Source: a virus
Lineage: Duplodnaviria > Heunggongvirae > Uroviricota > Caudoviricetes
IMG/VR virus record: IMGVR_UViG_2721755725_000006
Strand: one strand, 5' to 3'
DNA: 50,823 nt
The position numbers are program-made. Shown in pieces: positions 9,001 to 15,000 of this stretch. Position 1 is the first letter of the stretch. Each line of letters begins with the position of its first letter.

Positions 9001-12000
9001 GATATGATCAACGGCAATCAAAAAAGCTGGCTGGCACATTGTACCGATTCAGAGGCGTTAATAATCGACAGGGTTATTGGTGAAGTACTGGCAGGTTATC
9101 CCGGGCTGCTCAATGTTCTGAGTCAGCGTTATGTGGGGCGGGGGATGACTAAGCGCAAAATGGCTGAACTGCTGAATGATGCACATCCGGAATGGAGTTT
9201 AAGAACCTGTGAAAGACGCATTGAGCATTGGCTAAAGGTGGCAGAATTTATTTTGTACAAACCAATGGTTATGGCTTTTGGTATAGATAAAAAAGTTATT
9301 GCTTTTTGACGTAAAAACTGCTTCAATTCCGGTACGCTTCGCAAAGCTGTACCGCGAGGCGAATAGCAGACATGGACATTTGAAAGAGCCCGCTTTTTGC
9401 GGGTTTTTTTATGACTGAAAAACGGCACGGGGCGTTAAATGCGCTGGTGGTTGCGAATACCGGTCTTTCTGCTTGCTGGCTTTTTGGACAAGAGTTATTG
9501 GTATGTCACGTTAACCAAAAGGGAAAAAAGACATGCTAAAACAGCAGGATATGACAGAAACCGCCAGAGTGGTGTTTAATGAATTAAGCGTTACCGAACC
9601 GGCGACAGTCGGGGAGATTGCGCAGAATACTTACCTTTCACGCGAACGCTGCCAGTTAATACTGACCCAGCTTGTTATGGCGGGTCTGGCAGACTATCAG
9701 TGCGGTTGTTACAGACGCCTTCAGTCCTGAAGGCTTTTTATTTGTGGTGAATGGGCGGCTGGTGGGGGGGCGACACCTGTCAGTCCTTTGCTTATGTGTT
9801 GATGATAATTTACCTTTTGGGGCTATAATTGAGCTAACCAATTGCTAATGAAAGTAAAATTATAATGGCTGTTGTCTGTTCAGTTATCATGGTTTGCTCC
9901 CCAATTAATATTTTTCTTGAAAAGGATACGTTGTCACTTAAGCCAGGCTCAGTCGTTCTGGCCACCAAATGCATCAGGGAGCTTTTCCTTATGCATTATG
10001 GCAAAGTTAAAATTGTCGATATAAGCGAATCCGTCGTAAGTCAATATCTGGAAAGTCAGCATAAGCTGACGAGGACTCGTCTGACTGACATTCCGCTTTA
10101 CCTGTTGCTGGAACCCAACAATCCTGCGTTGGCTGCGGCTTTAATTACCAGCCAGGGATTTTCCGGAGAGGTCACGGATATGTTTCTTATGATGGCCTGC
10201 CTGTCTCTGTTTGAAACAGATGAACGGATGTCATTGTTTTTAAGTGGATGTTTATCCAGCATAAGTGCCAAAGTCAGGGCGATAATTCAGACAGATATAT
10301 CAGCAAGCTGGACGCTTGGTGCGATTGCTCTACAGTTGCATATGAGTGAGAGTTTGTTAAAGACAAAACTGAAAAATGAAGGGGGCATGTTCAGTCGCTT
10401 GTTGCTGGAAGAGCGGATGCGTGTTGCTGTAAATATGTTATGTTCCCGGCATGGATATGGACAGGCTATAGCAGAAAAATGCGGTTATTCAAGCAGGTCC
10501 TACTTTATTTCTGTATTTCACCGCTATTATGGCTTCCCGCCAGACAGATATGTATCCAGGCAAGGGCTTGATTATTGATTTTCATCTGATTATTATTTTT
10601 TGGCTCGGTCCTTTAGCTCAGTGGTGAGAGCGAGCGACTCATAATCGCCAGGTCGCTGGTTCAAATCCAGCAAGGGCCACCATATTACATACCGCTATTA
10701 GCTCATCGGGACAGAGCGCCAGCCTTCGAAGCTGGCTGCGCGGGGTTCAAGTCCCCGATGGCGGTCCATTATCAGCATCATGCGTTGTTAGCTCAGTCGG
10801 ACAGAGCAATTGCCTTCTAAGCAATCGGTCAGTGGTTAGACTCCACTACAACGCGCCACACTTATTTTCCAGGCTCGCTTCGGCGGGCCTTTTTTGTATC
10901 TGCGCCACGCCCGGCGCATATCAACCACAGAGCCTTTCGGGGGTGAGCTTACGGAGTGGTCAGTGTGACTTTCTCTGTGGGCAGATCGCTCCCGGGCGTT
11001 GGCTCACCCACCCAAAGGAACGTCACGATGTTTGTAAGCGTCAACGGAGCACCGTATTGACGCTTATTTATTGGTGAGTACTACGTTCCATGGCAGGAGT
11101 TCGTCAACACGGTTGGAGGGCCATTCCGGCAGTACGCTCAGAATATGGCGCAGATACGCTTCCGGATCGATACCGTTCAGACGGCAGGTGCCGCTCAGCC
11201 CGTACAGCAGTGCTCCACGCTCGCCGCCGTGATCGCTACCGAAGAACACGTAATTTTTCTTTCCGAGACAGACTGCACGAAGCGCTCTTTCCGCTGTGTT
11301 ATTGTCCACCTCCGCCAGACCGTCATCACTGTAATAACAGAGGGCGTCCCACTGATTCAGTACATAGCTGAACGCTTCGCCCAGTCTGGATTTTTTCGAC
11401 AGCGTGCCATTCTTCTCCACCATCCATTCATGCAGCGACGTCAGTAACGCTTTGCTTCGCTGCTGCCTGGCTGCAAGACGCTCTGATTCTGGTAATCCCC
11501 GTATTTCATCCTCGATGGCGTACAGTTCACTGATTCGCTTCAGGGCTTCTTCTGCCGTCGCACTTTTGCTGCTGATGTATACATCGTGGATTTTTCTCCG
11601 GGCATGAGCCCAGCACGCAACTTCTGTCAGCGCACTACCTTCACGTTCTGCACTGAACAGCCTGTCATAACCTGTGAACGCATCCGCCTGCAGGATACCC
11701 CGGAAGGGGCGGAGGTGTTGCTCCGGGTGTTTCCCCTGCCGGTTCGATGAGTACGCGAACCAGACCGCCGGAGGAGATGACGAACCCGCATTGCGATCAT
11801 CCCGGACATACGTCCAGATGCGCCCTGTTTTCGTCTTTTTCAGGCCCGGTGCCAGTACCTTTACCGGTGTGTCGTCAGTGTGAAGCTTGCGGGTATTCAT
11901 CACATAACGGTACAGGGCATCATTCACCGGTGTCATTAACTGGCAGCACGCGTCAACCCAGTTGGAGAGTAAGGCCCGGCTCAGTTCGACACCCTGGCGG

Positions 12001-15000
12001 GCAAAGATTTCACTCTGACGATACAGTGGCAGATGTTCGCAGTATTTTCCCGTTAACACGCGGGCAAGTAATCCGGGGCCCGCGATACCACGCTCTATCG
12101 GGCGGGACGGCGCCGGTGCTTCAACAATACAGTCACATTTTGTACAGGCTTTTTTTACCCGTTCTGTGCGGATCACTTTCAGGGCACTGCTCACCAGTTC
12201 CAGCTGTTCAGCGCTGACTTCTCCCAGATAATCCAGCTCACCGCCACACTCCGGGCAACAGCTTTCTTCTGGCTCCAGGCGGTGTATTTCACGGGGAAGG
12301 TGTGCCGGTAACGGACGACGATGGCGCGACTGTCGCAACTGGCGGGGAACCTGAGGATCGTCTTCCCGCCCACTGTAACGATCGCTGTCCTGTTCACGTT
12401 GTTTCAGCAGAGCCTCAGCCAGTTCAACTTCACGACGCAGTTTTTCAGAACGGGTACCGAACAGCATCCGGCGCAGTTTTTCTATCTGAGCCCGCAGATG
12501 TTCTATTTCCCGTTCATCTTCTTCGATCTTTTCTTCGGCACGTGTCAGTGCAGAGCGCAGGAAGGCTTCCGTCTCTTCAACCAGACTCAGTTGCTGGTCT
12601 TTCTGACGGAGGGCTTCAGCCTGCTCAGAGAGCAACCTTTCCAGCTCTGCGATGCGAATGAGGTATTTCTGACTCATGACCGTTTTTATAATGCGGTCAG
12701 GAGTTTTTTACAACATTGTCAGTGAGTTACGGCTGGATGTTTTTGGCTGACGCCAGTCCAGCTTATCGAGGAGCATTGCCAGTTGCGAGCGGGTAATGGA
12801 TACCTTGCCGTCACGTACCGCAGGCCAGATAAACTGGCCTTCCTCCAGGCGTTTGGTGAACAGGCACAGACCATCAGCATCAGCCCAAAGAATTTTGACG
12901 GTGTCACCCCGTCGGCCACGGAAGATAAACAGGTGACCGGAGAAGGGATTATCATTCAGCACATGTTGTACCTGTTCTCCCAGTCCGTTGAAGGATTTAC
13001 GCATATCGGTAACGCCGGCAACGAGCCAGATACGGGTACCTGATGGGAGTGAGATCATCTTCCCCTCCCGGTCAGTTCACGGATCAACACCGTGAGCAGC
13101 TCTGGCGATGGATTTTCCAGCGTCATGTTACCGTGACGGAATTCCACCTTGCAGGAACTGGCACTGACTCTGGTCTGAGTGGAAGTGGATAAAGACGGCG
13201 CAATGGCCGCCACAGGTTCTTTCTGCTCATCCGGCGTTATTTCTACAGGTAATAATTCAACGCCAGTGTCAGAAGAGGTCGTTACCGGAAGACGCCGCGA
13301 AACACGCCCTTCGTTCTGCCAGAGCCTGAGCCATTTGAAAATAACATTATCATTGACGCCATTTTCACGTGCAATCTGTGCAACACAAGCTCCAGGTTGT
13401 GATGCCAGTTCCACCATACGAAGTTTGAATTCATTCGAATAGTTTTTACGAGGTTCTTTTCGCCAGTCCTGTAATTCCATACTTAGATGTCCGTCTATAT
13501 CAGATGGGCGTCTAAGTTACCAATTCTCGTCTGATGGCTACATACGGCGGTCAGTTTACGCTTACCGATGTTTGGAATCTTCAAAAAGAAAACCCGCAGA
13601 GCGGCAGCGGAAATTAAAAAGTTTGAGAAACGCGATCTGGCACAGGCGGTGATTAACGCTGCATACCTGGTGGCCTATGCAGATGGTGAATGCGAGGCAT
13701 CCGAGAAAGCGAAGATCGAACAGGTCTTACGTAATCAGCCTGCGTTGTCTGCGTTTACCTCGGAAATTAATGCGATTAGCGCAACTATTATCGGTCAGCT
13801 GGATACCAATTTTAAAATTGGTCGTCGTGCCGCGTTACGTGAGATCGAGGATGTGAAACACGATACGCGTGAAGCGGAAGATGTGCTGGATGTGGCGGTG
13901 GCCATTGCGGAGGCAGACGGCGAAATTGAGCCGGAAGAGCGCAAGGTGCTGGAAGAGATTGCCGGTGTTCTGGGTCTTCGTCTGGAGAATCACCTGTGAC
14001 GGTAAAACTGCGCCTGACTGTGGCTGCACTCCTGCTGTTTCTGGTGGTGATGGTGGATTTCACCAGCAGAATCATGTCGGTGCTGGCGGATGGGGTGCTG
14101 GTCTGCGGCATTATGGTATTGCTGTGGCCGGTGATAAAAAGAAACAGCCTGCATAATGCTTGATTTTTTTGTTTGCTGTTTATTAAAAACACTTCTGCAT
14201 GGTGAATCCCCCTGTGCGGAGGGGCGATCAGCAACCAGGTATATGGGATAATCGCGGATTCAGGTGCTGATACTGAATTCACCGGGAGGCACCCGGCACC
14301 ATGCTTTGCCACAAAAGTGTTGTTTCTGTTTTTCTCAAACTATCATCGTTATCCCTTTATTTCCGGCTGCGCATGGCGTGGCCTTTTTTTTACGACCAGC
14401 CACTGGCAGATGGCCATCCTGTAATTTGATTCCGGTTCCGGCTTTTTAACTCTGTTCCTGTACACGGGAGAAATTCGATGTCGATTAAACATTATGATGT
14501 TGTCAGGGCGGCGTCGCCGTCAGACCTTGCGGAAAAGCTGACACACAAACTGAAAGAGGGCTGGCAGCCGTTTGGTAGTCCGGTGGCCATAACCCCTTAT
14601 ACTCTGATGCAGGCCATTGCGGCGGAAGGTGATGTCACCACACCTGTGTTGGTGAAGCCGTCGGATGGAGAAGGCACAGTAATCAGCGCCACCAGAGACC
14701 CGGAGTATTACTTTGTTGTGGTTCTGGCGGGGCAGTCAAACAGCATGGCATATGGTGAAGGCCTTCCGCTGCCGGAGACATATGACCGTCCGGACCCGCG
14801 CATTAAGCAGCTGGCGCGTCGCAGTACGGTGACACCGGGCGGTGTCGCCTGTAAATATAACGACATCATTCCGGCGGACCATTGTCTGCATGATGTGCAG
14901 GACATGAGCCGCCTTAACCATCCGAAAGCGGACCTGTCAAAGGGGCAGTACGGAACCGTGGGGCAGGGGCTGCATATCGCCAAAAAATTGCTGCCGTTTA

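Follow-up and report, generated by a model that had tools for sequence, protein, structure and literature searches.

A 2,532-bp insertion sequence (IS) of the IS66 family was found at positions 11034-13565 of IMG/VR record IMGVR_UViG_2721755725_000006, a prophage sequence of 50,823 bp (hereafter the window, meaning the whole stretch of DNA that was analyzed), with its genes on the minus strand and an 8-bp target duplication, CGATGTTT, that contains the start codon of tciA. The explanation preferred here, to which a probability of roughly 0.8 was assigned as a whole, is a single old insertion accompanied by a local translational loss of tciA and tciB, continued late read-through, and neutrality. 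An ISEc23/ISEc47-type IS66 element would have entered, in a single transposition event, a lambdoid prophage with effector genes in an ancestor of the O111:H8/H- clone of Escherichia coli producing Shiga toxin (STEC), and would have duplicated CGATGTTT across the start codon of tciA, a TerB-type moron and the first gene after the tRNA genes ileZ-argN-argO. The tciA open reading frame (ORF) and its ATG are intact, the native Shine-Dalgarno (SD) sequence has been left 2.5 kb upstream to open a 10-codon dead-end ORF, and, with the tciA ATG now behind an IS terminus lacking an SD, translation of TciA and TciB would most likely be strongly lowered. Upon induction, Q-dependent late transcription would most likely still cross the element to the esterase, lysis, and structural genes; read-through is expected because Q-modified polymerase already ignores four strong native terminators. 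The insertion would be neutral or tolerated and would have reached fixation along with the clone. The anatomy and family of the element, its target duplication and empty site, its lineage distribution, its age in relation to another IS of the window, and the removal of the SD were all computed here.

Structure and identity of the insertion sequence

Three intact genes were found on the minus strand of the element in the consecutive order tnpA, tnpB, and tnpC, and the RefSeq annotation makes the same calls. The first, tnpA (13055-13480), encodes a 141-aa protein with a Pfam match to HTH_Tnp_1 (5e-12); tnpB (12708-13058) encodes a 116-aa TnpB_IS66 or IS66 Orf2-like protein that matched PF05717 (TnpB_IS66) at 1.1e-36 over profile positions 2-100 of 101; and tnpC (11064-12677) encodes a 537-aa DDE transposase, identical to WP_000080194.1, that matched PF03050 (DDE_Tnp_IS66) at 5.4e-97 over the full-length profile together with zf-IS66, LZ_Tnp_IS66, and DDE_Tnp_IS66_C. 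The three products are identical to widespread protein accessions, and the tnpA stop and tnpB start share a 4-nt overlap (ATGA, 13055-13058). The Pfam matches for all three ORFs bear out the IS66-family identity proposed in a preliminary description of this DNA, and the ORF coordinates agree with its placement of tnpA-tnpB-tnpC on the minus strand, against rightward late transcription.

At its ends the element has inverted repeats of 24 nt with 83% complementarity (GTAAGCGTCAACGG... / GTAAGCGTAAACTG...), and both arms start with GTAAGCGT. Terminal inverted repeats of the IS66 family are ~20-30 bp in length and have a 5'-GTAAGCG start. The repeat on the tnpC side (GTAAGCGTCAACGGAGCACCGTAT, 11034-11057) lies inside a stable hairpin, as determined by inverted-repeat search and folding, and the repeat on the tnpA side (reverse complement GTAAGCGTAAACTGACCGCCGTAT) occupies 13542-13565. 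Folding also placed a hairpin with a near-perfect 16-bp stem directly upstream of the tnpA start codon (13481-13517; z -4.5 for the 101-nt fold). In other IS elements, hairpins have been described as occluding the tnpA initiation region in read-through transcripts, and the hairpin found here may act in the same way on the tnpA leader or initiation region.

On all family criteria that can be tested in sequence, the element is a member of the IS66 family. Its assignment to the ISEc23/ISEc47 type follows the labels of the Prokaryotic Genome Annotation Pipeline (PGAP), which calls TnpC 'ISEc47 family' and calls ~98% identical DNA copies 'ISEc23 family', and should be read as provisional. TnpA and TnpB are identical to proteins of ISEc23-family-labelled copies in unrelated strains. 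A literature search on the name 'ISEc47' turned it up in an unrelated context only.

Target duplication and empty site

The left copy of CGATGTTT is located at 11026-11033 and the right copy at 13566-13573, so that the sequence reads ...AAAGGAACGTCA-CGATGTTT-GTAAGCGTCAACGG... at 11014-11047 and ...CAGTTTACGCTTAC-CGATGTTT-GGAATCTTC... at 13552-13582. These are the only plus-strand occurrences of the 8-mer in the window, and the probability of a chance 8/8 match at two fixed positions was calculated as ~1.5e-5. The right copy includes the tciA ATG, the ORF beginning at 13568-13570. Both the perfect duplication and its inclusion of this ATG had been noted in the preliminary description. Five further independent 2,532-bp copies of the element, located elsewhere, are also flanked by 8-bp duplications.

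The duplication was judged to be real because a contiguous empty site, which is the decisive evidence, exists in STEC genomes. The empty site was rebuilt as the left flank, one CGATGTTT, and the right flank, and was searched for in 5,426 complete E. coli genomes. Many STEC genomes, belonging to serogroups O26, O103, O111, O121, and O145, contain it uninterrupted and without a mismatch over 376 nt (100% identity), and 352 records match it at an identity of at least 99%. The empty site has the sequence ...AAAGGAACGTCACGATGTTTGGAATC..., and the site predicted for an IS-free relative was ...GTCACGATGTTTGGAATC... with a single CGATGTTT; alignment to IS-free relatives, which had been proposed as a check, returned the expected single 8-mer, and no IS-free orthologous prophage with a site contradicting this prediction was found. 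A three-way alignment of the empty site with both junctions gave a textbook insertion pattern. In the PGAP annotation, the 143-aa TerB-family protein WP_000466957.1 starts at the same ATG at both empty and filled sites. A longer reconstruction of 3.4 kb, which comprised the small ORF, the AraC-like gene, the three tRNA genes, the TerB and DUF3927 genes, and the esterase gene, was uninterrupted in 458 genomes at ~98% identity.

Effect on translation of tciA and tciB

The native SD of tciA, AAAGGAA, is located at 11014-11020 on the plus strand, 7 nt before the ATG in the left copy of the duplication. Its displacement by 2.5 kb had been recognized previously and stands, with the coordinates corrected from 11015-11021. 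What the native SD now serves, from the ATG of the left copy, is a 10-codon ORF (MFVSVNGAPY*, 11028-11060, plus strand) that runs into the IS terminus and ends at a TGA at 11058-11060.

Initiation regions were scored using a spacing-restricted anti-SD duplex calculation, with random 20-mers of the window as the comparison. The native AAAGGAA gave -5.6 kcal/mol at 7-nt spacing. The 20 nt that now precede the tciA ATG (CGGTCAGTTTACGCTTACCG) gave a best value of -2.4 kcal/mol at 12-nt spacing, which was equalled or beaten by 56% of the random 20-mers. The IS terminus that was said to lie upstream of the intact ATG is indeed there, and it offers no SD at a usable spacing. No alternative start was found upstream of the tciA ATG, an in-frame TGA being present at 13532. 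The GTG start of tciB (13996) overlaps the tciA stop codon (GTGA), and because of this overlap tciB is probably translationally coupled to tciA. Since the SD has been lost from the tciA leader and the tciB start overlaps the tciA stop, synthesis of both TciA and TciB is most likely strongly reduced.

Lineage distribution and relative age

With E. coli strain SD134209, which came from human faeces in South Dakota, the window shares 99.99% identity; with strain 11128, the O111:H- reference, it shares 99.9%, apart from one extra IS in the window. The exact filled site was present in 45/5,426 complete genomes, and every serotyped one was O111 (H8, NM, H-, and one typed H2). The strains originated in Japan, the USA, and elsewhere, and had been isolated from humans, cattle, flies, a crow, and veal. 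No IS-free copy of the prophage segment at 99% identity or more was found among the 5,426 complete genomes. Since the closest IS-free relatives are 98.0% identical, the genomes searched contain no sample of exactly this prophage before the insertion.

The extra element is a second IS of the IS1203/IS629 type (IS3 family) at ~17512-18819, with transposase ORFs at 17566-17892 and 17889-18779 on the plus strand (rve and HTH_21 matches). Its site is in the lysis cassette, with the holin gene on one side and the lysozyme gene on the other; there it splits a hypothetical gene, and it has a ~4-bp overlap at its junctions and an ALIL frameshift pseudoknot at 17847-17963. The insertion seen in the window is shared by 31 complete genomes and is absent from strain 11128; the 12 genomes listed of the 31 are all among the 45 O111 genomes with the filled IS66 site. 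In three O111:H8 genomes (NZ_CP077452.1, NZ_CP077562.1, and NZ_CP077473.1) an IS1203 is nested in the same IS66-type copy, and the match covers 5.3 kb in two pieces. Such a nested element would inactivate the IS66-type copy where tnpC is interrupted.

The IS66-type insertion is older than the IS1203 insertions, because a later IS1203 is present in 31 genomes and a nested IS1203 in 3, and it is also older than the diversification of the sampled O111:H8/H- clone. The suggestion that the event was recent, drawn from the perfect duplication, had to be abandoned: 45 genomes of several countries have the site filled, no IS-free copy at 99% or more is known among those searched, and the insertion precedes those of IS1203. 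The intact 8-bp duplication cannot date the event on this timescale.

Two further observations concern the element and its site. In one genome beyond the 45, that of strain UTAK-13 (NZ_CP169008.1), the match takes in the left junction and continues for ~1.98 kb into the IS before it ends (query positions 1-2612 of 4001), which suggests a rearrangement or deletion from within the IS that removed tciA and what follows. In addition, exact matches to the 24-nt IS end were found on short contigs assigned to Lachnospiraceae, Clostridia, Rikenellaceae, Bacillota metagenome-assembled genomes, Moraxella osloensis, and Streptococcus sanguinis (L011, L012, L014, L020-L023), and the contigs L014 and L020 hold full 2,532-bp copies. 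These matches most likely stem from Enterobacteriaceae DNA that was mis-binned or is a contaminant, and do not reflect real host range.

Late transcription across the element

Four native plus-strand terminators were identified between the Q-like antiterminator gene and the holin gene (9388-9410, 9717-9734, 10871-10890, and 14365-14383). Because they are already in the leader, late expression must rely on a terminator-resistant polymerase. Q-modified polymerase complexes ignore terminators across thousands of base pairs (PMC9388147). A consensus scan found no canonical plus-strand terminator inside the IS. At its tnpC-side end (~11034-11067), folding gave a hairpin of -20 kcal/mol (z -3.95) followed on the plus strand by UAUUUAUU; this structure is terminator-like, but its U-tract is interrupted. 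The earlier claim that the element probably decouples downstream genes from the Q-dependent late promoter is not supported by these features, since the leader has four terminators of its own and the IS adds at most one that is imperfect. From these sequence features, a block of late transcription by the IS is unlikely, and we infer read-through.

Several points weigh against the preferred explanation. The Q-like protein is of the DUF1133 class, a putative antiterminator, and a pR' promoter with its Q-binding element was not located by the scan: the consensus search found no promoter in 9310-9390, and reading by eye gave weak candidates only. The tnpC-side hairpin with UAUUUAUU could terminate some transcripts, and the 2.5 kb of untranslated antisense IS RNA could be a Rho substrate for any polymerase that lacks the Q modification. 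Initiation at the tciA ATG may also proceed independently of an SD.

The alternative that best survives these data, although unlikely, is that the IS is a polar block that cuts tciA, the nanS-p-type esterase gene, and the lysis genes off the Q-dependent late promoter and leaves late expression crippled. It draws on the same 2.5 kb of untranslated antisense RNA, on the stable hairpin, T-rich in its tail, that rightward transcription meets on entering the IS, on the end of native-SD translation after 10 codons, and on the uncharacterised class of the Q-like protein. Set against it are the four canonical plus-strand terminators that must already be crossed in the native leader, the disregard of Q-loaded complexes for terminators over thousands of base pairs (PMC9388147), and the IS itself, which has no canonical plus-strand terminator and an end hairpin whose U-tract is interrupted. 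Moreover, 13 Stx2a phage genomes from ciprofloxacin-induced cultures had IS629 in their late region, at a single position downstream of stx2 (PMC4587872), so Stx2a phages with a late-region IS do give phage DNA on induction.

A second alternative, distinctly improbable, is that a lineage-wide knock-down of tciA and tciB in one prophage of all O111:H8 STEC strains, or some damping of late transcription through the IS-end hairpin, was selected for a benefit to the lysogen and represents a step in prophage domestication. If this were true, loss or re-timing of tciAB could stabilise the effector-carrying prophage (espN, nleL) against productive lysis.

It is more improbable still that an outward or hybrid promoter at the tnpA-side end of the IS drives constitutive expression of tciA-tciB, and possibly of the esterase gene as well, in lysogens, independent of induction. 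Outward or hybrid promoters borne by IS elements are a known general phenomenon, and one weak plus-strand sigma-70-like match was found inside the IS (12926-12955, 9 of 12). However, the consensus scan found no outward sigma-70-like promoter within or overlapping the terminal 85 bp on the side of the IS that faces tciA, the 7 promoter-like hits of the region lie within the shuffle expectation of 4.4 +/- 2.2, and the tciA ATG would lack an SD even if transcribed.

Finally, recombination between IS copies or an assembly artefact in place of simple transposition, for which one could cite the ~three copies of the IS66-type element and many other IS in O111 genomes and one other copy that lies among IS fragments without a duplication, is effectively refuted by the perfect 8-bp duplication, the contiguity of the flanks in the empty site, and the recurrence of the same structure in 45 complete genomes that were assembled independently.

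Choice of target site

The first six copies of this IS type pointed to a NNNTGTTT motif. Target-sequence preference was considered as the cause of the hit on 'ATG TTT' and was rejected after 19 independent flanks left a weak bias, with G/C at position 1 in 15/19 and A/T at position 6 in 17/19 and at position 7 in 17/19 (Fisher p = 0.04 for A/T, first versus second half). CGATGTTT agrees with this bias, which is too unspecific to explain insertion at a start codon. Approximately 0.8% of window positions would place a whole annotated start codon within the 8-bp duplication, and the IS type has matches in 4,783/5,426 complete genomes. With thousands of IS insertions in E. coli genomes, a start-codon case is expected by chance, and the one observed here is regarded as a post-hoc coincidence.

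Prophage context

The gene order in this part of the window is the Q-like gene, a tR'-like terminator, a 65-codon ORF, an AraC-family gene, three tRNA genes, tciA, tciB, and the esterase, holin, and endolysin genes; the Q-like gene, the tR'-like terminator, the AraC-family gene, the tRNA genes, tciA, and tciB are on the plus strand. The Q-like antiterminator gene (8743-9309) was assigned by matches to DUF1133, Phage_antitermQ (33 bits, cutoff 26), and phrog_753 ('anti-termination protein Q-like', 1e-80). The tR'-like intrinsic terminator follows ~80 nt downstream (9388-9410; GCCCGC-TTTTT-GCGGG and T7, -18 kcal/mol, z -6.7). The tRNA cluster ileZ-argN-argO (10607-10858) was predicted using ARAGORN, in which ileZ, with its CAU anticodon, is called Met; an intrinsic terminator with an 8-bp stem, 6 G-C pairs, and a T6 tail lies directly after it (10871-10896). 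The intact tciA ORF (13568-13999; 143 aa, TerB family, WP_000466957.1) matched phrog_632 ('tellurite resistance', 2e-69), and tciB (13996-14163; 55 aa, DUF3927, GTG start) matched phrog_1470 ('TciB-like', 2e-29). The names TciA and TciB are derived from annotation only, and PADLOC gave no convincing defence-system assignment for either protein (best E = 0.0035).

In Stx2a_1447, ileZ-argN-argO are followed by stx2A, stx2B, and a 1,938-bp esterase-type gene. The tRNA cluster of the window is 93.5% identical to the one ahead of stx2A in that phage, and the homology ends just past the third tRNA. Phage JLK-2012 has tciA and tciB annotated in the same position, in the order Q-tRNAs-tciA-tciB-yjhS-S-R. 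The term 'stx-equivalent slot' used in the preliminary description is thus a fair positional one, as tciA-tciB here and in JLK-2012 occupy the position of stx2A-stx2B in Stx2a_1447.

Other features of the window were noted during annotation. The AraC-family regulator gene (9865-10578; HTH_AraC/HTH_18, phrog_1450 at 9e-99) lies inside the late leader, downstream of the Q-like gene and ahead of the tRNA cluster; it presumably resembles the PatE/Psr-type AraC-like prophage regulators reported to affect acid resistance and type III secretion in enterohaemorrhagic E. coli. The spacer between tciB and the esterase gene contains a match to the small RNA STnc100 (RF02076, 14168-14340, plus strand; 104.7 bits against an Rfam gathering score of 47), just upstream of the terminator at 14365-14383, near which PGAP annotates only an opposite-strand pseudogene fragment. 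The nanS-p-type esterase gene differs from that of strain 11128 by a single nucleotide at position 15274 (WP_061104286.1 versus WP_000023159.1). At the right end of the prophage are the plus-strand type III effector genes nleL (~43545-45893; SopA-like E3 ligase with pentapeptide repeats) and espN (46675-50076; DUF4765, 1,133 aa); beyond them lie fragments of gogB and of a transposase gene (50233-50823). The prophage is an exchangeable-effector-locus prophage.

Significance and comparison with known systems

The insertion is already known both in kind and as an instance, the element and its neighbours being present in RefSeq for 45 O111 genomes that include the 2009 reference strain 11128. It is an ordinary insertion, and its significance beyond bookkeeping is little. 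The junction is a clean clonal marker of O111:H8/H- STEC and, together with the later IS1203 insertion, orders events within the lineage. It is also a natural example of an IS that keeps an ORF and removes its ribosome-binding site, which catalogues of gene presence would score as 'gene present'. Two cautions follow for similar cases: a perfect target duplication is no proof of recency, and polarity of an IS should not be assumed in operons with processive antiterminators.

Structurally, no differences were found between this element and the IS66 family (IS66, IS679, ISEc8, ISEc23, and ISEc47), with which it has in common the tnpA-tnpB-tnpC order, the ATGA overlap of tnpA and tnpB, a DDE transposase (TnpC) that has zinc-finger and leucine-zipper regions, ~24-nt GTAAGCG ends, an 8-bp target duplication, and a length of ~2.5 kb. 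The tciA-tciB pair, matched by phrog_632 and phrog_1470, is a moron cassette of lambdoid and P1-type phages; the cassette of this prophage has lost its translation-initiation region.

It is common for the late regions of STEC prophages to carry IS insertions (PMC4587872), and the window holds a second one. Those of IS629/IS1203, for example in the PST1-1 Stx2a phages, are likewise late-region insertions downstream of the toxin or moron slot, and they occupy a fixed position common to many related strains and so serve as a lineage marker (PMC4587872), as does the copy at ~17512-18819 of the window. They differ in belonging to the IS3 family, in having a 3-4 bp duplication, and in splitting coding sequences or sitting between genes, whereas the IS66-type element described here keeps the ORF and removes the ribosome-binding site.

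The general precedent is the classical polar insertion of IS1 or IS2 in the gal and lac operons and its suppression by phage antitermination. In those cases, as here, an IS lies between the promoter and the downstream genes, and the outcome is set by the resistance of the polymerase to termination. In contrast to gal and lac, the operon interrupted in this prophage is naturally served by an antiterminator, and polarity is expected to be weak.

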